Assembly (NCBI RefSeq): GCF_030013595.1
Contig: NZ_CP122768.1
Length of the DNA stretch: 64,000 nt
Reading direction: 5' to 3' (one strand)
Source of the DNA: Escherichia coli
GTDB lineage: Bacteria; Pseudomonadota; Gammaproteobacteria; Enterobacterales; Enterobacteriaceae
The position numbers and the translations under genes were made by a program. Shown here piece after piece: positions 1 through 45,360 of this stretch; position 1 is the first letter of the stretch, and every line of letters begins with the position of its first letter. Under the pieces are notes generated by a model. It was given only the letters and a program-made list of their open reading frames with translations, ran no database searches and was not told where the DNA came from.

Positions 1-1389
1 CGTGCTCGCATCCTCAAGCGCCACGGCGGACGCAATATCCTCTGCCCGTTTTGCCGCTGTCTCGGCGCGCGTTGCCGCGGATTCCGCCGTACTTTTGCTC
101 TGTGCTGCCGCCGTCGCACTGCCAGCTGCCTCTGTCGCCTTCGTGGATGCTGTCGTGGCGCTGCCCTTCGCTGCGGACGCTTGTCTGGTCGCCTCATCTT
201 TTGAAGCAGACGCCGATGATGCCGATGACGCCGCCGAACTGGCGGACGATGCCGCTGCCGTTTTTGAGGATTCTGCACGGGTTTCCGACGCTTTCGCGTT
301 CGTTTCGGATGTCTTCGCTGCGGAAGCTGACCTCGCTGCTGCCGTGGCCTGCTCAGTGGCTTCGCCAGCCTTCGTTGTGGCTGTTGAAGCGGATGATGCG
401 GCGCTTTCTGCCGATTTTCCGGCGGCGGTGGCACTGGCTGAGGCCTGCCCGGCACTTGTTGACGCGGCACTGGCAGACGACGCAGCCGCTGTTTTTGAGC
501 CTGCCGCAGCTGAGGCGCTCTGTCCCGCTGCCGTCTCAGAAGACCTGGCGTTCGTCTCGGACGTTTTTGCCGCCTTCGCGGAATTTCCTGCCGCCGTTGC
601 CGAGGAAGCTGCGCTACTGGCGCTCAAGGATGCGTTCGTTTCTGATGATTTCGCTGCCTCTTTTGAGGCCGCCGCATCCCGGGCTGAGGTGGCAGCTTCT
701 GACGCCTTTGTGGTCGCTGCGGATGCAGAAGTGGCTGCAGATTTTTGTGACGCTGCCGCATTCGTTTCTGACGTTTTCGCCGCAGCGGCACTGGTGGCCG
801 CCGCGCTTTTTGAGGACTCTGCAGCGGCAGCACTTTTTGATGCTTCAGTGGCCTTTGTTGATGCCGTTCCTGCGCTGGAAGACGCTGACTGAGCCGACGA
901 AGCGGCCTGTCCGGCTGACGTGCTGGCTGCGCGTGCTGAGCCTGCAGCATCAGTCGCATGGGTTGCCGCCTCACGGGCAGATGTGCCGGCATCGCCGGCT
1001 GACTTCTTCGCGGCTGCCGTGTTCTGTGCCACCACGGACGCGTTACGCGCCACCTCTTCCACCATCAGCTCAAAACGGCGCAGTGCCTCCGGACGGGCAT
1101 CATCCTCCGTCATGGCACCGAGAAAATCATTCAGCGTACCGGGTCGGGAATCTTCATACACTGTGATAGTCCCGGCATGTGACGGCGGGAATCCTTCCAC
1201 CAACAGAATAACGCTGTACTGACCGTACTCAACGTCCATACTGTAACGCCCGGCTTCATCCGGATTTTCTGAGGCCAGCGTGTTCACCACCACCGTGGTG
1301 CTGTTACGTTTTGCTTTCAGCTGGATTGTGCAGTTCTGTACCGGTTTTCCTGTGCCGTCTTTCAGTACACCTGAAATCTTTACTGCCAT
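1..1389 (-). CDS. stf: side tail fiber protein Stf, N-terminal ~463 codons; 3' end runs off the window edge
   Basis: Reverse-strand reading from ATG near 1389 (MAVKISGVLKDGTGKPVQ...) stays open to position 1; Ala/Ser-rich repeats as in λ Stf; absent from ORF track because no stop lies in the window. Confidence 0.75.
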   Translation of the reverse strand, partial: MAVKISGVLKDGTGKPVQNCTIQLKAKRNSTTVVVNTLASENPDEAGRYSMDVEYGQYSVILLVEGFPPSHAGTITVYEDSRPGTLNDFLGAMTEDDARPEALRRFELMVEEVARNASVVAQNTAAAKKSAGDAGTSAREAATHATDAAGSARAASTSAGQAASSAQSASSSAGTASTKATEASKSAAAAESSKSAAATSAAAAKTSETNAAASQKSAATSASAATTKASEAATSARDAAASKEAAKSSETNASLSASSAASSATAAGNSAKAAKTSETNARSSETAAGQSASAAAGSKTAAASSASAASTSAGQASASATAAGKSAESAASSASTATTKAGEATEQATAAARSASAAKTSETNAKASETRAESSKTAAASSASSAASSASSASASKDEATRQASAAKGSATTASTKATEAAGSATAAAQSKSTAESAATRAETAAKRAEDIASAVALEDAST

Positions 1390-1400
1390 ATTCACCCCAC

Positions 1401-1428
1401 AAAAAAGCCCGCCTGAACCGGCGGGCTG
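1401..1428 (-). terminator. rho-independent terminator downstream of lom
   Basis: GC hairpin (gcccgcc...ggcgggc) followed by T-run on minus strand. Confidence 0.55.
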
Positions 1429-1453: not shown

Positions 1454-2053
1454 TCAGAATTTATAACCGACACCCACGATGAACCCGTCAGTGCGCCAGT
1501 CACCGCTGCCGGAGCCTTCATAAGCGACGTCAACGGCCACGGATTCGGTCGGGTTAAACTGCACGCCAGCTCCCCACGCCAGAGACGTGTTGCTGTGGCG
1601 ACCGTCATCACTTCCGGTCAGCACATCGTGCGTTTTCCCCTTGTTGTCAGTTACGCGGATATAATCTCCGGAGAAAGTCGACACACGGCTGTAAGCCATA
1701 CCCGCCATCGCATACGCGCTGAACCATTCATTCACGCGCACAGACGGCCCCGCCATCACGCTGAACCAGCGGTTACGCACGGAATCTTCATGCCAGCGGG
1801 TATCGCTGTAATGCGTTTTTTGCTCATCTTCAGCGTTGGTATAACTGAATGACGTAATCAGCCCCAGCGTGTCCGTAAACTCATAACGGTATTTCACGTT
1901 AATCCCGTTCAGATTATCGCTGCCGGGAGCGTTCGTACGGGCATGAAGATACCCTGCGCTCAGTGTGGCCTGCTGCTCAGACGCCCATGCAGGCGCACCG
2001 GATACGGCCAGACAGATGGCTGCGGACAAAATGGCTGCACAAACTTTACGCAT
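1454..2053 (-). CDS. lom: Lom/Ail-family outer membrane beta-barrel protein
   Basis: 199-aa ORF with signal peptide, C-terminal YEGSGSGDWRTDGFIVGVGYKF like λ Lom, position between J and stf. Confidence 0.85.
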   Translation of the reverse strand: MRKVCAAILSAAICLAVSGAPAWASEQQATLSAGYLHARTNAPGSDNLNGINVKYRYEFTDTLGLITSFSYTNAEDEQKTHYSDTRWHEDSVRNRWFSVMAGPSVRVNEWFSAYAMAGMAYSRVSTFSGDYIRVTDNKGKTHDVLTGSDDGRHSNTSLAWGAGVQFNPTESVAVDVAYEGSGSGDWRTDGFIVGVGYKF

Positions 2054-2074
2054 AATTACCTCTCGCTTTTCTGC

Positions 2075-2101
2075 AATAAAAAAGGCGCCATTTCTGGCGC
2101 C
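2075..2101 (-). terminator. hairpin plus T-run between J and lom
   Basis: ggcgcc-N6-ggcgcc stem followed by TTTTTTATT on minus strand. Confidence 0.5.
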
Positions 2102-2120
2102 CGTATATGGGTTATAAAAT

Positions 2121-5100
2121 TCAGCTGATACTGATGCCTGCGGTGGCTTTCTTCATCACCACAACCAGCAAATCGCTGATACTTGCTGTGGGATACCAGT
2201 TATTTACCAGCCATGCTGACACCGAAAACTCCAGTGTCATGTGACCGTGACCGGCAGGCATATCAATAACACCACTGTAAATCAGCGTATTATCCAGCGC
2301 GGTACGGTTATAAATTTCAGCACCGTTTTTCCGTACTATCAGACGGCATGAGGAGTAAATATCAGTATGCTCTTTCTCATGTTTAGCGCCGCTGAATGCC
2401 ACCGCCGGAATAACAATCTGCCGGTCAAACGGCTGATCGTCATAAACCCTGACGGTGATGGTCCCTGATGGCCACCGTTCCGGTGCACGGGAGTCCCGGG
2501 GGAAAGCTTTGCCCACTGTTTTAACGAGATCGCCTTCAATCTGGTTCGCGGACAGTTTTCCCAGAACCCGACAGTTCTCGTTAATCGTGACGTTGTTGAG
2601 CGTCCCGGAGTTCGCATTCACGTTACCGCTGATATCGGCATTTTTCGCCGTCAGCCGCCCGTCCGGTGTCAGGGAAAATGCCGGTGGATTTCCGCCGCTG
2701 GTAATGGTGGGAGCCGTCAGGCGTTTCAGGAACACGTCGTTCATGAATATCTGATCGCCCTGACCAACAAACATCGGCTTTGTGTTGCCATTCGCAGGAT
2801 TAATCATCGCAATCCGGTCAGCAGCCAGAAGCACCTGACTCTGCATACCTGCTGGCGTATTCTCAATACCGGCTCCGATACCCGCAATATAAAGGCGTCC
2901 GTCCTTCATCTGCTGCAGTTTCACGGCCCACATGCTGTTCAGGTTATTATTTGTATCAACCTGAACTTTCTGTATCTGCTGGATTGCCGCGCTCTGATTT
3001 TCCAGTTTCTTATTGACGGTCTGTGTGATTTCATTGCTGACATCCGTAATGGACGTCCTGATTTCAGCCAGGTCAGGCGCAAGCTGATCGTTATCAATCT
3101 GCGTCCACAGCTCCTGAGCCAGATGGGTTTTCCCTATCTCGCCTTTGAAAAAATCCAGATAGCCGGATGCGTCATCACTCGGCTGACCGACAGCCTCCAC
3201 GAATGCCGATTTGCCAACAGTGTTCACACTGCGAACGTAAAAATAATAATCATGGCCCGGCTTAATATTGATACTGGCAGCTATCCAGTACAGCGCCGTA
3301 CCAAGATAGCGCGCTGTGGTTTCAACCTGCCTGATATCCGCAATCCGCTTTTCCGAGAACCAGAACTCAAACTGTACCGTCGGATCATAAACGGCAAGAT
3401 GCGGCGTGGCGGTTATCTGAAAATAGCCCGGCGTCAGCTCAATCCGCGACGGTGCTGCCGGTGCGGCAATCCGGAACGATACCGATGCCGGATCGCCCTG
3501 CTGTCCCCACGCATTTACCGCCCGGACTGTCAGCCTGTAGTTCCCCAGCGCCAGCTGCCTGAAGCGGTATGTGGTTTCCGTCGTCCGGGCCGTGCTGACC
3601 AGCCGCTCACTGCCGTCATCGGCGGCCACGGTCAGGCGAAGCATAAAGCTCACACCCTTCACCACCTTCGGCGTGTCCCAGCGCGCCAGCACCTGATACT
3701 CCCCACTGTCTGCGGTGACTTCTGCGGTCAGGTGCTGCACCGCTGGCGGCGTGACACCATTCACCGTGCCGCTCTGGTCGCCGTCAAAGTGCGCCCCGTT
3801 ATCCACGATGGCTTCTTTCTCCGGTACATGCTGCACGGCAGTGATGGCATACGTGCCGTCATCGTTCTCACGGATACTCACACAGCGGAACAGGCGCTGG
3901 CGCAACGTCGGCAGCTTCAGCCCCCACACGCTGTATTCTGCAACGCCGTCAGGAACACGGCTCACTTTCACCTTCACACCGTCGGTGACGGACTGAACCT
4001 CCACGCTGACCGGATTGCCACTTCCGTCAACCAGGCTTATCAGCGTGGTACCGGAGGATGGCAGCGTGATTTCACGGTCGAGCGTCAGCGTCCGGGTCTG
4101 GCTGTTCACCGCCAGCACGCGCCCGCCGGTGCTGATACCGGCATAGTCATCATCGCAGATTTCAATGACATCGCCCGGCACATGGCGAAGCCCTTCTGCG
4201 CCCACGCTGAAATCCACGGTCTGCGTTTCCAGCAGTTCCGTTTTAATCAGCCACAGCCCGGCGCGGTGTGCCTGCCCCCGGCTGGTACAGCCAAAGGCAT
4301 CCATCTTCGTAACATTACGACCGTAACGGGCAATGGCCTGCGTATCTTCAACAAGCTCTGTCGCCGTCTCCCAGCCGTTATCCGGGTCAATCCAGTTCAC
4401 CTCAACGGCATTATGGCGGTCCTTCAGGGCGCTGAAGCTGTAGCGGAACGGCGCGCCATCATCCGGCATCACCACATTACTGCGGTTATAGGTCCACACC
4501 TTATCCGACGGTCGGTCCTGCACGAACGTCAGCGTCTGCCCGTTCCATACCGGCATACAGCGCATCGCCGAGCAGAAATCGCTGAGCACATCCCACGCCT
4601 TACGTTGTGTGGTCAGCCAGGCATTACAGGTGATGCGCGGCTCCGTGCCGCCAAAACCGTCCGGCACCGACTGGTCGCAGTACTGGCCGATGACATACAG
4701 CGCCCATTTATCCACATCTGCCGCACCAAGACGTTTCCCCATGCCGTAGCGCGGATGGGTCAGCATATCCCACAGACACCAGGCCATGTTGTTGCTGTAT
4801 GCTGGCTTAAACGTTCCATCCCAGATACCGCTGTATTGCCGCGTCTGCGGGTTATAGTTCGACGGCACCTGCAGAATGCGCCCGCGCAGATGATAATTAC
4901 GGCTCACCTGCTGGCTGCCGAACTGCTCCGAGTCCACCTGCACGCCGACCAGTGCCGTGTTCGGGTAGCACTGTTTCACATCTATAATTTCGGTGTATGA
5001 CGACCAGAGCGTTTTGTTCTGCAGCTGGTCTGTGGTGCTGTCCGGCGTCATCCTGCGCATCCGGATACTGAACGGGCGCGGCGGCAGGTTATCCACCACC

Positions 5101-5600
5101 ACCGAGGCCAGATACTGCGAGGTGGTTTTGCCCTTAATGGTGATGTCTTTTTCCGTCACCCAGCCACCGTTACGTTGTATCTGAACCAGCAGGCGGACTT
5201 CCGATGGATTCCTGTCACCCTTTGAGGTGGTTTCCACCAGTGCCTGCACACCGAAGGTAAAGCGCAGTCGGTCGATGTTTGCCGACGTGATGGCGCGGGT
5301 GATCGGCGTGTCGTATTTCACTTCCGTACCCAGCACCGTCTCGGAGCCGGAGGATTCAAATCCCTCCGGCGGAGTCTGCTCCTGCTCACCAGCCCGGAAC
5401 ACCACCGTGACACCGGCGATGTTGGTATTCCCCTCACTGTCCAGCACCGGCGTACTGTTCAGCAGCACGCTTTTTAATCCATCCACCGGACCTTCAATCG
5501 GCCCTTCACTGATGGCATCAATCACACTCAGCAACTGCGTGGATTTCAGGTTGTCCTTCGCTTCGCGCGGGGTATGCCCCTTACTGCTGCCTTTACCCAT
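2121..5600 (-). CDS. J: tail tip host specificity protein J
   Basis: 1159-aa ORF, ATG start, λ gene order (downstream of I), λ J-like sequence. Confidence 0.9.
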
Positions 5601-5671
5601 TCGTCACGCTCCATAAACGACAAAACCGCCCGCAGGCGGTTTCACATAAAACATTTTTCATCAGCGACCAA

Positions 5672-6331
5672 TCACCACAACCTGACCACCATCACCTTCA
5701 TCTGCTGTGCTGATCTCCTGAGATACCACCCGCGACCCCACACGCATTTCACCGTACAGAACGGGCAGGACATTGCCCTGGGCAACCATATTATCCAGTG
5801 AAGAAAAATAGGTGTTCTGTTTGCCGTTATCCGTTGTCTGTGTGCGGGGGTTTTGGGTTTAGGGGCCAGCATCTGCGCCACACCACCGAGCACCATACTG
5901 GCACCGAGAGAAAACAGGATACCGGTCATACCACCGGCCCCAATGGCTGCCCCCCATGCTGCAAGGGTGGCTCCGGCAGTAAAGAATGATCCGGCAATGG
6001 CGGCAGCCCCCAGAACAATCTGGAATACGCCCCCTGACTTGGCCCCGGCGACTCTGGGAACAATATGAATCACAGCGCCGTCAGGCAGAGTCTCATGTAA
6101 CTGCGCCGTTAACCCGGACGTGCTGACGTCCCGCCCGGCAATCCGTACCTGATACCAGCCGTCGCTCAGTTTCTGACGAAACGCCGGGAGCTGTGTGGCC
6201 AGTGCGCGGATGGCTTCAGCCCCCGTTTTCACACGAAGGTCGATGCGGCGGCCAAATCGTTGCAAATCCCCGTAAAGGCAGATGCGTGCCATTCCCGGTG
6301 ACGCCAGAGGGAGTGTGTGCGTCGCTGCCAT
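5672..6331 (-). CDS. I: tail assembly protein I; last ~60 codons read out of frame (apparent frameshift)
   Basis: First ~158 residues match λ gpI; tracked ORF ends in W/C-rich junk (…VMVVRLW) while the neighbouring frame encodes a clean …GDGGQVVVIGR tail ending at ~5661. Confidence 0.7.
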   Translation of the reverse strand: MAATHTLPLASPGMARICLYGDLQRFGRRIDLRVKTGAEAIRALATQLPAFRQKLSDGWYQVRIAGRDVSTSGLTAQLHETLPDGAVIHIVPRVAGAKSGGVFQIVLGAAAIAGSFFTAGATLAAWGAAIGAGGMTGILFSLGASMVLGGVAQMLAPKPKTPAHRQRITANRTPIFLHWIIWLPRAMSCPFCTVKCVWGRGWYLRRSAQQMKVMVVRLW

Positions 6332-24079: not shown

Positions 24080-24155
24080 TGGTGCTGGTTAACGGACTTG
24101 AACCGCTACCCATTCGCTTACAAGGCGACCGCTCTACCATTGGAGCTAAACCAGC
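24080..24155 (-). tRNA. tRNA-like gene, anticodon UGU (Thr) by hand folding
   Basis: 76 nt cloverleaf: acceptor GCTGGTT/AACCAGC, D-arm GCTC…GAGC, anticodon loop CTTGTAA, T-loop TTCAAGT, CCA end. Confidence 0.55.
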
Positions 24156-24160
24156 ATATT

Positions 24161-24235
24161 TGGCGGGACAGCGTGGACTCGAACCACGATAAGAAGGTTA
24201 ACAGCCTTCCGTAATGACCTTTATACGACTGACCC
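24161..24235 (-). tRNA. second tRNA-like element, anticodon GUU (Asn?) with imperfect acceptor/D arm; possibly a pseudo-tRNA
   Basis: T-arm CGTGG-TTCGAGT-CCACG, anticodon stem GAAGG/CCTTC loop CTGTTAA, CCA end; one acceptor mismatch. Confidence 0.4.
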
Positions 24236-38837: not shown

Positions 38838-39056
38838 ATGTACTTGACACTTCAGGAGTGGAACGCTCGCCAGCGACGCCCAAGAAGCCTTGAAACAGTT
38901 CGTCGATGGGTGCGCGAATGCAGGATATTCCCTCCTCCGGTTAAGGATGGAAGAGAATATCTGTTCCACGAATCAGCGGTAAAGGTTGACTTAAATCGAC
39001 CAGTAACAGGTAGCCTTTTGAAGAGGATCAGAAATGGGAAGAAGGCGAAGTCATGA
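38838..39056 (+). CDS. xis: excisionase Xis
   Basis: 72 aa λ Xis-like (MYLTLQEWNARQRRPRSLETVRRW…). Confidence 0.9.
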   Translation: MYLTLQEWNARQRRPRSLETVRRWVRECRIFPPPVKDGREYLFHESAVKVDLNRPVTGSLLKRIRNGKKAKS

Positions 39057-40104
39057 GCGCCGGGATTTACCCCCTAACCTTTATATAAGAAACAATGGAT
39101 ATTACTGCTACAGGGACCCAAGGACGGGTAAAGAGTTTGGATTAGGCAGAGACAGGCGAATCGCAATCACTGAAGCCATACAGGCCAACATTGAGTTATT
39201 TTCAGGACACAAACACAAGCCTCTGACAGCGAGAATCAACAGTGATAATTCCGTTACGTTACATTCATGGCTTGATCGCTACGAAAAAATCCTGGCCAGC
39301 AGAGGAATCAAGCAGAAGACACTCATAAATTACATGAGCAAAATTAAAGCAATAAGGAGGGGTCTGCCTGATGCTCCACTTGAAGACATCACCACAAAAG
39401 AAATTGCGGCAATGCTCAATGGATACATAGACGAGGGCAAGGCGGCGTCAGCCAAGTTAATCAGATCAACACTGAGCGATGCATTCCGAGAGGCAATAGC
39501 TGAAGGCCATATAACAACAAACCCTGTCGCTGCCACTCGCGCAGCAAAATCAGAGGTAAGGAGATCAAGACTTACGGCTGACGAATACCTGAAAATTTAT
39601 CAAGCAGCAGAATCATCACCATGTTGGCTCAGACTTGCAATGGAACTGGCTGTTGTTACCGGGCAACGAGTTGGTGATTTATGCGAAATGAAGTGGTCTG
39701 ATATCGTAGATGGATATCTTTATGTCGAGCAAAGCAAAACAGGCGTAAAAATTGCCATCCCAACAACATTGCATGTTGATGCTCTCGGGATATCAATGAA
39801 GGAAACACTTGATAAATGCAAAGAGATTCTTGGCGGAGAAACCATAATTGCATCTACTCGTCGTGAACCGCTTTCATCCGGCACAGTATCAAGGTATTTT
39901 ATGCGCGCACGAAAAGCATCAGGTCTTTCCTTCGAAGGGGATCCGCCTACCTTTCACGAGTTGCGCAGTTTGTCTGCAAGACTCTATGAGAAGCAGATAA
40001 GCGATAAGTTTGCTCAACATCTTCTCGGGCATAAGTCGGACACCATGGCATCACAGTATCGTGATGACAGAGGCAGGGAGTGGGACAAAATTGAAATCAA
40101 ATAA
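39034..40104 (+). CDS. int: tyrosine integrase Int
   Basis: 356 aa λ Int-like with C-terminal R…HxxR…Y catalytic region. Confidence 0.9.
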   Translation: MGRRRSHERRDLPPNLYIRNNGYYCYRDPRTGKEFGLGRDRRIAITEAIQANIELFSGHKHKPLTARINSDNSVTLHSWLDRYEKILASRGIKQKTLINYMSKIKAIRRGLPDAPLEDITTKEIAAMLNGYIDEGKAASAKLIRSTLSDAFREAIAEGHITTNPVAATRAAKSEVRRSRLTADEYLKIYQAAESSPCWLRLAMELAVVTGQRVGDLCEMKWSDIVDGYLYVEQSKTGVKIAIPTTLHVDALGISMKETLDKCKEILGGETIIASTRREPLSSGTVSRYFMRARKASGLSFEGDPPTFHELRSLSARLYEKQISDKFAQHLLGHKSDTMASQYRDDRGREWDKIEIK

Positions 40105-40177
40105 TGATTTTATTTTGACTGATAGTGACCTGTTCGTTGCAACAAATTGATAAGCAATGCTTTTTTATAATGCCAAC

Positions 40178-40192
40178 TTAGTATAAAAAAGC
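40178..40192. other. attL: attL core (15-bp GCTTTTTTATACTAA, reverse orientation) at prophage/chromosome junction
   Basis: ttagtataaaaaagc flanked by λ P'-arm sequence on the int side and attB-like CCTGC on the ybhC side. Confidence 0.8.
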
Positions 40193-40238
40193 AGGCTTCA
40201 ACGGATTCATTTTTCTATTTCATAGCCCGGAGCAACCT

Positions 40239-41522
40239 GTGAACACATTTTCAGTTTCCCGTCTGGCGCTGGCATTGGCTTTTGGCGTGACGCTGACCGC
40301 CTGTAGCTCAACACCGCCCGATCAACGTCCTTCTGATCAAACCGCGCCTGGTACCTCTTCTCGCCCGATTCTGTCGGCAAAAGAAGCGCAGAATTTCGAT
40401 GCTCAACACTATTTTGCATCCCTGACACCAGGTGCGGCAGCGTGGAATCCTTCCCCGATTACCCTGCCTGCGCAACCTGACTTTGTTGTCGGCCCGGCGG
40501 GTACTCAAGGTGTAACGCATACCACGATTCAGGCGGCGGTAGATGCGGCAATTATCAAGCGCACCAACAAGCGCCAGTATATTGCCGTGATGCCTGGTGA
40601 GTATCAGGGAACGGTGTATGTCCCTGCCGCTCCGGGTGGAATTACTCTGTACGGTACAGGTGAAAAACCGATTGATGTGAAGATTGGGCTTTCCCTTGAT
40701 GGTGGCATGAGCCCTGCCGACTGGCGTCACGACGTCAACCCGCGCGGCAAATATATGCCAGGTAAACCGGCGTGGTATATGTACGATAGCTGCCAGAGCA
40801 AACGCAGCGACAGTATCGGCGTTCTCTGCTCTGCGGTCTTCTGGTCACAAAACAATGGCCTGCAACTGCAAAACCTGACCATCGAAAACACGCTGGGCGA
40901 TAGCGTAGATGCGGGTAACCATCCGGCGGTGGCACTGCGTACTGATGGCGACAAAGTGCAGATCAATAACGTCAACATTCTCGGTCGTCAGAACACCTTC
41001 TTTGTCACCAACAGCGGTGTGCAGAACCGTCTGGAAACCAACCGTCAGCCGCGTACTCTGGTGACCAACAGTTACATTGAAGGGGATGTGGATATCGTTT
41101 CTGGTCGCGGCGCAGTGGTGTTCGATAACACCGAATTCCGCGTGGTGAACTCACGTACTCAGCAAGAAGCGTATGTGTTTGCACCGGCAACACTGTCTAA
41201 CATCTATTACGGTTTCCTCGCCGTAAACAGCCGTTTCAATGCTTCCGGTGATGGCGTGGCGCAACTGGGCCGCTCGCTGGATGTTGATGCCAATACCAAC
41301 GGTCAGGTGGTGATCCGTGATAGCGCCATCAACGAAGGTTTTAACACAGCCAAACCGTGGGCTGATGCGGTGATCTCTAATCGTCCGTTTGCGGGTAACA
41401 CCGGCAGCGTTGATGATAACGACGAAGTACAGCGTAATCTGAATGACACTAACTACAACCGCATGTGGGAATACAATAACCGCGGCGTGGGTAGCAAAGT
41501 GGTTGCAGAGGCGAAGAAGTAA
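40239..41522 (+). CDS. ybhC: YbhC (pectinesterase-fold outer-membrane lipoprotein / acyl-CoA thioesterase)
   Basis: 427 aa, lipoprotein signal (LTAC), known neighbour of attλ in E. coli. Confidence 0.85.
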   Translation: MNTFSVSRLALALAFGVTLTACSSTPPDQRPSDQTAPGTSSRPILSAKEAQNFDAQHYFASLTPGAAAWNPSPITLPAQPDFVVGPAGTQGVTHTTIQAAVDAAIIKRTNKRQYIAVMPGEYQGTVYVPAAPGGITLYGTGEKPIDVKIGLSLDGGMSPADWRHDVNPRGKYMPGKPAWYMYDSCQSKRSDSIGVLCSAVFWSQNNGLQLQNLTIENTLGDSVDAGNHPAVALRTDGDKVQINNVNILGRQNTFFVTNSGVQNRLETNRQPRTLVTNSYIEGDVDIVSGRGAVVFDNTEFRVVNSRTQQEAYVFAPATLSNIYYGFLAVNSRFNASGDGVAQLGRSLDVDANTNGQVVIRDSAINEGFNTAKPWADAVISNRPFAGNTGSVDDNDEVQRNLNDTNYNRMWEYNNRGVGSKVVAEAKK

Positions 41523-41552
41523 GAGCTATTAACTATTTGCCGGATGCGGCGT

Positions 41553-42309
<757 letters not shown>

Positions 42310-42413
42310 ATCAGCATACTTGTCCTTAGCCTTCTGCAGTGACAGCTGGTAGTACAGCGTGCTTCTGGCCAGCCCTGCAGCCTTTAACAGGTCAGACTGG
42401 CAGTGTCCGCACC

Positions 42414-42944
42414 TCAGGCTCCGGATGACTTTCGTTTTTTCTCCAGCTCCTGGCGCTTTTTTTCCAGGAGATGCTCCTGCATGGCTTTCAGATATGCATT
42501 TTCTGCGCGAAGATAACGCAGCTCATTCTTCATCTCTTCCGGCGTCATGTTTGCCTCGTTTTCATGGGTATCATCAGAACGGGTCATGCTTTTCTCCTTC
42601 CTGCGCCTGATAAAGGCCTCATTACCAGATTTGCGGTAGCCTTTTATCCAGTTTTTAACCGTGTTGTGGCTGGGAATGTTAAACCGGGCAGCTACCCGGG
42701 GTAGAGACTCAGAATGCCCGAGAGCATAAAGAACCACGCAAAGTTTATCTTCAGGAGAATAGCTACGCTTGTGTCTGCAATCCAGTGCACGAGGACCGTG
42801 AAGAAGAAAAAGATTAATCCAGTGTGAGAGGCTGGTGTGAGAAAGTTGAAAGAGTTTTGCCGTAGAAATGATGCCTGCATGACCAGCCAGGTAATGATTT
42901 ACAGCGGCAAGTTTTACTTCAAATGAATGTTTCATAAACTGCAC
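42414..42944 (-). CDS. IS3-family transposase OrfA (HTH + leucine zipper); A-run slippery site near its 3' end for OrfAB fusion
   Basis: 176 aa; GAAAAAAAG-type slippery run at ~42420-42450. Confidence 0.8.
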   Translation of the reverse strand: MQFMKHSFEVKLAAVNHYLAGHAGIISTAKLFQLSHTSLSHWINLFLLHGPRALDCRHKRSYSPEDKLCVVLYALGHSESLPRVAARFNIPSHNTVKNWIKGYRKSGNEAFIRRRKEKSMTRSDDTHENEANMTPEEMKNELRYLRAENAYLKAMQEHLLEKKRQELEKKRKSSGA

Positions 42945-42986
42945 CTTCAGATGTCAGATTATGTCCAACATTTGGGGTGCAGTTCA

Positions 42987-43085
42987 GTAAACGCCTTATC
43001 CGGCCTACGGTTCGATGCGATTTGTAGGTCGGATAAGATGCGCCAGCATCGCATCCGACAATAAGTGCCGAATGCGACCTACATT
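42987..43085. repeat. REP/BIME palindromic units (the same cluster the IS interrupted; left remnant at 41538-41554)
   Basis: gccttatccggcctac and gtaggtcggataag…gcatccgaca palindromic units. Confidence 0.6.
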
Positions 43086-43098
43086 CACATGGCGCTTT

Positions 43099-45360
43099 TT
43101 ACATCTGACGGTTTTTATTGAAGTTAATCAAACTACCCGCCTTGATAATCTCGCGCTCTTCGGCCGTCAGGCTTTCCATGTAAAGCGTAATTTCCGTTAC
43201 CGGCGCATCTTCATGGATCACATAACCTTTAAACGTCGTACCCGGATTATCCAGCGCTGCTTTAATGCCAGGGATGTAAATGTAATCCCCCACTTCAAAC
43301 GTTGGTGCTTCCGCCATCTGCAGCGGTAACATCCCCCAGTTGATGACGTTAGAACGGTAGCGTTTAGTCGCGTACTCCTCGGCAATATTCGCCAGACCGC
43401 CAATCACACGCTGGCAGCTCGCCGCCTGCTCACGCGCAGAACCATCGCCTGGTTTCACCGCATAGACCATGCTGCCAATTTCAGTTTGCAGCGGATCAAT
43501 ATGCTCCTGACCAGCAATCTGCTTAATGCGCGCAAACACCTCTGTCAGCTCGCTGACATTCCCCGCCAGACGCTGATTTTCCAGCTCAGCAGTCGCTTTA
43601 CTTCTGCCAACATAACCTGGATCGCGGCGTGACAGGGTAAACTCCGCCAGACCAATCGGATTTGAACGATAAGAAGAGGTTTCACCGGAAGGGATCAGTT
43701 CGTCGGTGGTGGTCACTTCGTCGAGGATCTTCGAGCACACTTTGAGGACGATATTGTCAGTTAGCGCCCCCAATTCTGGCCAGTCTTTTATGTTCGGTCC
43801 GTAAATCAATGGTTGCTGGGTCGCCCCTTTCACAAAGCCCTGATAAACACGGTTTTTATACGGAGTTACATCGAAGGCGTACTCCGGTACGTTGTCCCAG
43901 CAATCAAGTTCGCTGGCAGAGGTTAAATAGCCACCGTTTGCCGCAGTCGCAGCGATAGAACGAGCGTCCATCAACGCCACCGCTGACATCTGCCCATTGG
44001 CTGGCTTAGAGCCTTCGCGGTTCGGGAAGTTACGCGTGGTGTGGCGAATACTCAAACCGTTGTTGATTGGCGTATCGCCCGCGCCAAAGCATGGGCCGCA
44101 GAACGCGGTTCTGATGATTGCGCCTGCGCCAATCAAATCTGCTACCACGCCTTTTTTGGCTAAATCCATAAACACCGGCTGTGATGACGGGTAAACCGCT
44201 AACGAGAAGGTGTCATTGCCACAGGATTGACCGCGCAGCGCATTCGCCGCCGCGATGACGTTTTCATAGTTACCGCCAGAACAGCCCGCGATAATCCCCT
44301 GCTGCACTTTCAGGCGACCATTTTCCACTTTATCCAGCAGCGAGAGTTTGGCTTTACCGTGCGCCACGCGTTCGGACTCAATTTCAATCTCACGCAGAAT
44401 ATCGGTCAGGTTCTGGTTCAGCGTGTCGATTTCATATACGTTGCTCGGGTGGAACGGCAGCGCAATCATTGGTTTGATGGCGCTTAAATCAACGCTGATG
44501 CAGCCATCGTAGTATGCCATCGGTTGAGGGTTAAGCTGGCAGTAATCCTGGCCGCGTCCGTGCAGCGCCAGCCAGTTATGGACTTCTTCATCGGTTTGCC
44601 AGACAGAACTTAAACAGGTCGTTTCAGTGGTCATAACGTCAACGCTGTTACGGAAATCGGTAGAGAGCGCAGCAACACCGGGACCTACGAATTCCATCAC
44701 TTTGTTTTTGACGTAGCCGTTTTTGAACACGGCACCGATGATAGCCAGCGCCACATCCTGTGGCCCCACATACGGCGCAGGCTTTCCGGTCAAATGCACC
44801 GCAACAACTCCCGGATAGTCGATATCCCATGTGTCATTAAGCAGCTGTTTTACCAACTCACCGCCACCCTCACCGACTGCCATTGTCCCTAATGCACCGT
44901 AACGGGTGTGGCTGTCTGACCCGAGGATCATTTTGCCGCCGCCTGCCATCATCTCACGCATATATTGATGGATGACCGCAATATGCGGAGGCACAAAAAT
45001 ACCGCCATAACGCTGAGCCGCCGATAAACCAAAAACATGGTCATCACCGTTAATGGTGCCGCCGACGGCGCAAAGTGAGTTATGGCAGTTGGTCAGCACA
45101 TACGGCAGCGGGAAACGTTCCATACCGGACGCTTTAGCGGTCTGTACAATACCAACAAAGGTAATATCGTGAGAGGCTAATGAATCAAACTTAATTTTAA
45201 GTTTATCCATATTTCCGGACGTATTATGAGAAGAGAGAATAGACCAGGCAATAGTGCCTTTTTTTGCTTCTTCTTTTTTAATTTCGCCGGTGAAATGTTC
45301 TTCGGCAATTATTTCGTTATTACTGGCGAGAAACACGCCTTTTTCAGATAACTTGATCAT
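43099..45360 (-). CDS. ybhJ: YbhJ aconitase-family protein
   Basis: 753 aa from ATG at MIKLSEKG (track start is an upstream GTG); aconitase-like Fe-S ligand region. Confidence 0.85.

Follow-up and report, generated by a model that had tools for sequence, protein, structure and literature searches.

A common type of lom gene beside the tail-tip gene J of an Escherichia coli lambdoid prophage: module structure and a possible role in receptor masking

Background

Lom of phage lambda is a protein of 206 aa (PDB 9wso chain C) encoded between the tail-tip gene J and the side-tail-fibre gene stf, with a hairpin on either side of its gene. In these respects, as well as in family and fold, it resembles the Lom analyzed here, which is encoded in a stretch of 64,000 nucleotides of Escherichia coli DNA (contig NZ_CP122768.1 of the assembly GCF_030013595.1), hereafter referred to as the window. 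When overexpressed, lambda Lom confers a strong defence against lambda-vir and not against T7, for which the authors proposed superinfection exclusion or the prevention of non-productive adsorption late in infection; in lambda lysogens, the native levels of Lom do not block lambda-vir (PMC12366544). The 199-aa Lom proteins of phage 434, of the cdtI phage and of VT1-Sakai-like and other long-tailed Stx phages are much closer to the window protein, being encoded at the same locus and 88-95% identical to it over their full length, with only small allelic differences located in the signal peptide, in loop L1 and at the tip of loop L2. Outside phages, Ail of Yersinia, Rck of Salmonella and OmpX of E. 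coli share with the window Lom the 8-stranded barrel and the barrel motifs, at 30-39% identity. The L2 and L3 loops of OmpX are about 13 and about 17 residues shorter, respectively, and ail, rck and ompX are chromosomal or plasmid-borne and, unlike the window lom, do not lie beside a phage receptor-binding gene.

Another group of phage proteins may resemble the window Lom in logic only, namely small envelope proteins that inactivate the receptor of their own phage. Cor of the phi80- and N15-like phages is a comparable receptor blocker, encoded beside the receptor-binding gene. Llp of T5, whose gene has the same kind of neighbor, blocks FhuA, the receptor of T5 itself (PMC9586334). Llp and Cor are lipoproteins and not beta-barrels, and have no homology to the window Lom, for which masking is putative.

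The window lom is an already known, ordinary gene of the common 199-aa type. Its family, its position and its exact sequence are public, and automatic annotation names it correctly. As things stand the finding is of little weight, and its sole forward-looking point is the testable matching of Lom types to receptors. We provide here the comparison of this gene with its relatives, and weigh the functions that have been or could be attributed to its product.

Results and discussion

Gene, protein and predicted fold

The ORF listing gives a 199-aa frame from ATG to stop at the place indicated by the initial annotation, which had named no strand; it is the minus strand (Table 1). Lambda and the 207-aa type of Lom described below have conserved the Shine-Dalgarno-like site ahead of this frame. 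Attribution to the Ail/Lom family, as initially proposed, is borne out by profile and by fold. Residues 1-199 of 199 are covered both by Pfam PF06316 (Ail_Lom), with 417.2 bits for a curated cut-off of 23, and by PHROG 108 “Lom outer membrane protein” (E = 1.7e-109); both profiles have 199 positions and are matched end to end by the window type. The AlphaFold2 model, obtained from a 41-sequence alignment, has a mean pLDDT of 92.7 and displays a signal-peptide helix (residues 2-17), a low-confidence linker and then eight strands (29-40, 47-58, 63-81, 86-106, 111-135, 141-166, 172-181 and 188-198). Its best matches among solved structures in a Foldseek search are Ail of Yersinia (3qra) and OmpX of E. 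coli (1qj9), with E-values of 1e-14 to 1e-13 against the Ail/Rck/OmpX group and TM-scores of 0.83-0.86 normalised to the target. The signal peptide, probably cleaved after the A-W-A motif, would export the protein, for which an 8-stranded Ail/OmpX-like barrel in the outer membrane is predicted, with L2 and L3 as two long beta-hairpins reaching out from the cell surface.

The protein ends with GVGYKF, and its terminal F, like the GY motif, shows little or no variation in the family alignment. An aromatic C-terminal residue is typical of barrel-assembly signals. No second Lom/Ail gene was found across the window and no Rfam family in or near lom. The exact protein is public in NCBI and UniRef, where it is found on 102 contigs under the name [quoted passage not shown], and its 90%-identity cluster has 6993 members.

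Table 1. Positions of lom and of its neighboring features in the window
Feature	Position	Strand	Description
lom CDS	1454..2053	-	199 aa + stop; Ail/Lom-family 8-stranded outer-membrane beta-barrel
Signal peptide, codons 1-24 (MRKVCAAILSAAICLAVSGAPAWA)	1982..2053	-	Putative, from sequence reading; A-W-A signal-peptidase-I-type site before SEQQ
Shine-Dalgarno-like GAGAGG	2059..2064	-	5 nt ahead of the lom ATG; sequence reading
Codons 177-199 (A-YEGSGSGDWRTDGFIVGVGYKF)	1457..1525	-	End of strand 7, L4 and strand 8; first part of the DNA block common to all Lom types
Terminator-like hairpin + T-run, J stop to lom start	2102..2083	-	8 bp stem, -15.7 kcal/mol, z = -3.25
Terminator-like hairpin + T-run, lom stop to stf start	1427..1406	-	8 bp stem, -18.7 kcal/mol, z = -2.56
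Tail-tip host-specificity protein J	2121..5600	-	1159 aa; upstream neighbor; PHROG 31/2148
Side-tail-fibre gene stf, 5' part	1..1389	-	Downstream neighbor, crosses the window edge; PHROG tail-fibre families

Prophage setting

As the lambda lom, the window gene is placed between J and stf on their strand. The lambdoid prophage to which it belongs occupies roughly the first 40 kb of the window, with tail, head, terminase and lysis genes following beyond J in lambda order, as judged from the closest annotated relatives. A lambda-like early region is confirmed by the lambda cIII thermoregulator element, matched over its full length (RF01804, 34440-34498, plus strand, 88.5 bits), and a tyrosine integrase adjoins ybhC/ybhJ (about 39000-44000), the neighborhood of lambda attB. 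The prophage origin put forward in the initial annotation thus holds, and the gene is almost certainly the lom of a lambdoid prophage at lambda attB and the positional counterpart of lambda lom. Taken together, the identity, fold, position and module structure of the window Lom can be stated with very high confidence.

Several other features were observed in this region. The prophage is a mosaic, no complete E. coli genome exceeding 96.5% identity over 91% coverage of its first 25 kb, and an IS1397 element distinguishes the best-matching genomes in the integrase/ybhC/ybhJ region. Two adjacent tRNA genes lie within the prophage (24083-24235, minus strand; RF00005, 61 and 55 bits). On the plus strand, two alanine-rich ORFs of 296 and 371 aa (1-1166) run antisense to stf, whose GC-rich sequence (0.61) most likely gives rise to them as frame artefacts.

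Flanking hairpins and expression

That lom is bracketed by terminators was also correctly seen in the initial annotation: a hairpin followed by a T-run was found on each side of the gene (Table 1). In related loci the stem of the upstream hairpin is kept by compensatory changes (GGGCGCC/GGCGCC, GGGCACC/GGTGCC, GGGCGTC/GACGCC), and lambda has hairpins at both positions, the upstream one weaker and the downstream one near-identical with an altered loop. A crude consensus scan of 4 kb upstream (2000-6000) revealed no sigma-70-like promoter on the lom strand, and the -35-like TTGACT/TTGCAG seen by eye past the upstream hairpin has no matching -10 hexamer. The GC content of lom (0.557) is close to that of J (0.565). 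Of the attributes expected of a moron, the gene consequently displays its own terminator, and neither an own promoter nor a distinct base composition.

In lambda, Q-modified late transcripts read through terminators, and Q-antiterminated late transcripts of the window prophage should similarly pass the hairpin between J and lom, resulting in strong late expression. According to ribosome profiling data as cited in PMC12366544, lambda lom is expressed in the lysogen with a sharp rise late in infection. Stable lysogens and induced cells express a lom orthologue of phi24B to a similar extent (PMC3342100). By analogy with both phages, a low level of lom expression may be assumed in the lysogen. Expression from the prophage, as stated in the initial annotation, would thus be expected from lambda and phi24B, the crude scan having found no sigma-70-like promoter on the lom strand over these 4 kb.

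Lom types and their divergence

According to the initial annotation, the loops of the window Lom appear to differ from those of lambda Lom, and an alignment was proposed to check it. Far from being essentially identical, the two proteins share 43% identity by BLASTP (89/207, 9 gaps) and 44.4% by tblastn. The difference is concentrated in the loops, L1-L3 being 21% identical (15/70) and the barrel strands 63% (54/86; Fisher p = 2e-7), with an approximate topology that counts about 10 residues per membrane crossing from the periplasmic turns of the model. L1 carries an 8-residue deletion relative to lambda, and L4 is identical (6/6). With 63% DNA identity over the gene body, the window lom falls in a cluster separate from the lambda type.

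The word “divergent” that had been applied to the window protein is nevertheless justified relative to lambda only. Searches of 5426 complete E. coli genomes with the type-specific lom body, leaving out the shared 3' end, retrieved the window (199-aa) type in 4094 of them, with a median of 2 copies and up to 13 (about 14,000 copies in total), a third type (207 aa) in 397, and the lambda type in 94, among them laboratory strains like J53 and BLR(DE3). The window Lom thus seems divergent because lambda Lom is a rare type: the latter is an atypical reference, and the window type represents the norm in E. coli. Of the 163 lom places recovered from the related loci (IMG/VR, with lambda and the window), 103 encode the 199-aa form and only 4 yielded no complete ORF.

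Loop variation had also been suggested to reflect interaction with the host. Within the 199-aa type (85 distinct CDS), pN/pS is 0.36 in L1, 0.17 in L2, 0.15 in L3 and 0.20 in the barrel. Since no region reaches a ratio of 1, diversifying selection on the loops of this type is rejected. What distinguishes the loops of one type from those of another is old and does not reflect ongoing diversification, and the pattern within the type looks like that of a fixed binding surface and not that of an arms race. Such variation as the 199-aa type shows lies mostly in the signal peptide, L1 and a short cassette at the tip of L2 (residues 73-81, window 1811-1837). This cassette has two discrete alleles: NAEDEQKTH, and GDKNRQLTR/H, which is carried by the largest protein cluster (P0032, 24,859 members). 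Among the J C-terminal clusters, the latter allele was found in one with 4/4 loci and in a second with 1/4.

Conserved C-terminus and module boundary

The C-terminal beta-strand had been reported as conserved. The segment in question, YEGSGSGDWRTDGFIVGVGYKF (residues 178-199), is indeed identical to residues 185-206 of lambda Lom over its 22 residues, and it exceeds a single strand, since on the AlphaFold model it includes the end of strand 7, L4 and strand 8. Over codons 177-199, any two of the three types display 0 nonsynonymous and 5-6 synonymous differences (pS about 0.35), as compared with a pS of 0.65-0.73 and a dN of 0.27-0.61 over the rest of lom. Within the 199-aa type the pS of these codons is 0.37, a synonymous diversity equal to that observed between types. 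The synonymous differences, together with the absence of nonsynonymous ones, show that protein-level constraint is at work too, and this constraint is very strong. A recent recombination tract as the sole origin of the C-terminal identity is rejected on the same count of differences.

The same codons also open a block that recombines independently of the remaining lom. DNA identity to lambda is about 60% over most of the gene, rises to about 90-95% at about codon 177 and remains so past the stop and the terminator until 200 nt into stf, a transition which is found again when the three types are compared (Table 2). The 5' end of stf in the window is about 94% identical in DNA to lambda orf-401, and one stf N-terminal cluster (at least 90% identity) is common to all three Lom types. 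The last 23 codons, which are invariant at the protein level, thus constitute with the terminator and the 5' end of stf a shared block where modules exchange, and the identical C-terminus marks the boundary of a recombination module as well as a constrained assembly signal.

Table 2. Median DNA identity to the window along lom and downstream, for about 150 related IMG/VR loci and lambda
Segment	199-aa type	207-aa type	Lambda type
Gene body	0.95	0.62	0.63
Last 72 nt	0.94	0.93	0.92
Next 250 nt	0.89	0.94	0.92

Coupling of lom to J

Over its last 250 aa, the window J is 98.8% identical to J of VT1-Sakai, 57% to J of lambda and 55% to J of phage 434. Association between J ends and Lom types was analyzed in 134 loci containing both genes, taken from the best 80 hits per query, a sample in which physical linkage confounds the pairing. 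When J C-termini (160 aa) are clustered at 80% identity or more, 8/8 clusters carry a single Lom type. At a 70% threshold in the same best 80 hits per query, one cluster mixes type 1 (199-aa) and type 3 Lom, and another lambda-type and type 3. Conversely, among these hits type 1 Lom is found beside four J C-terminal clusters with mutual identities down to 39%. In this linkage-confounded sample, each J cluster goes with one Lom type at the threshold of at least 80%, and the relation becomes many-to-many at 70%, so that a strict one-to-one pairing of Lom type and J end can be proposed only tentatively. Phage 434 illustrates this, its Lom being 89% identical to the window Lom, yet its J end only 55%. 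OmpC serves as the receptor of phage 434 and of phi330, a long-tailed phage (PMC12502783).

The occurrence of a single Lom type per J cluster, together with a start of stf common to all types, indicates that the inheritance of the variable lom body follows the receptor-binding end of J, not stf. The two would move together as one unit, and their co-inheritance fits a “bind and then block” pair, although adjacency alone would give the same pattern.

Possible functions of the window Lom

PDB entry 9wso comprises two chains “Outer membrane protein lom” plus the maltoporin sequence of the J-LamB complex 8xcj, with no J chain. From these chain sequences only we infer a Lom-LamB assembly: the presence of Lom and maltoporin without J designates a deposited assembly of Lom with lambda's own receptor. 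Our literature search found no published description of 9wso or of a Lom-LamB complex. Considered together with the protection restricted to lambda-vir, this entry favours receptor masking, and for lambda Lom a partnership with the phage's own receptor is now better supported than adhesion or serum resistance. The recent evidence thus points to Lom binding the receptor of its phage instead of, or besides, ligands of the animal host.

By analogy, the window Lom would bind the receptor of its own phage's J through the type-specific loops L1-L3, and sibling phages would as a result adsorb less to cells that are infected, lysing or lysogenic. Masking of the outer-membrane receptor of its own phage is the function that we tentatively favour for the window protein, while regarding it as far from assured. 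The conservation of L1-L3 within the type is as expected of a fixed binding partner and would speak for it; against it, the coupling of J and Lom could be plain physical linkage. The J receptor-binding end of lambda being only 44-57% identical to that of the window, binding of LamB by the window Lom is not to be assumed.

The main competing explanation, adopted in the initial annotation, is a lysogenic-conversion factor whose loops would bind epithelial cells, extracellular matrix or complement regulators and so provide adhesion or serum resistance, effects that have been described for Ail, Rck, PagC and lambda Lom. Family membership and the Ail/OmpX-like fold are consistent with it, as are the similar expression of the phi24B orthologue in stable lysogens and induced cells and the high frequency of the 199-aa type, of which a genome may contain as many as 13 copies, in E. 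coli, pathogenic lineages included. An effect of lambda lom in promoting the adhesion of K-12 cells to human buccal cells was moreover reported (Vica Pacheco 1997, cited in both PMC3594210 and PMC12366544). However, the window Lom misses the cut-offs of both relevant NCBIfam equivalogs, with 113.5 bits for 258 required in the case of Rck (NF011777) and 99.7 bits for 176 in the case of OmpX (NF006917), which reduces the link to the family name. Both L2 and L3 greatly exceed their OmpX counterparts in length, as L3 does that of Rck, and they are not alignable with them residue for residue, so that the functions mapped on Ail do not transfer by sequence. The loops are also under purifying and not diversifying selection, and the fixed place beside J and the co-inheritance with it are left unexplained. 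We consider a conversion factor rather unlikely for the window protein, though next in likelihood after masking.

Two further explanations appear much less probable. A role of Lom in the envelope during the lytic cycle, acting with the lysis machinery or altering the outer membrane late without any specific receptor, is suggested by the frequent co-transfer of lom and holin across lambdoid phages, from which a part in lysis was proposed (PMC9836094), and is in line with the strong late expression of lambda lom in the ribosome profiling cited in PMC12366544. The holin gene is nonetheless distant from lom, no mechanism or phenotype is known, and neither the lambda-vir-specific protection nor the Lom-LamB entry 9wso would be explained, which makes such a role very improbable. 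About as improbable, or slightly more so, is a passenger gene with little current function, kept mainly as its 3' end and flanks form the recombination joint between J and stf. The module boundary indeed falls inside lom. It is also established for lambda that lom is dispensable for growth. This explanation conflicts with purifying selection on the whole protein, loops and barrel included, and with the intactness of most copies, both among the 163 lom places and in the 4094 complete genomes that have the body of this type. Whatever likelihood is left beside receptor masking and adhesion or serum resistance goes to some other function of the window Lom, or to none.

Receptor masking, if retained as the working explanation, can be extended to the family as a whole. 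The three or more Lom types might be receptor-matched masking proteins, with L1-L3 of each binding the receptor of the co-inherited J end; in that case the receptor masked by the 199-aa type would not be LamB but, for example, OmpC, and the J end and the lom body would form a single “bind it and then block it” cassette exchanged among lambdoid phages. We put this forward as a speculative proposal, more likely to fail than to hold in its entirety. No defence model of PADLOC-DB 2.0, a library that predates the 2025 Lom report, matched the window Lom or lambda Lom. Should Lom types prove receptor-matched, the most widespread “virulence” gene of E. coli prophages would become a factor of competition between phages, and Lom typing could help predict the receptors of lambdoid prophages.

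As an observation on the copy number of the gene, one IMG/VR contig carries a tandem pair of lom genes about 1.5 kb apart (L054:4310-6402, on the same contig as L157:3505-5597), whose products are 94% and 92% identical to the window protein.
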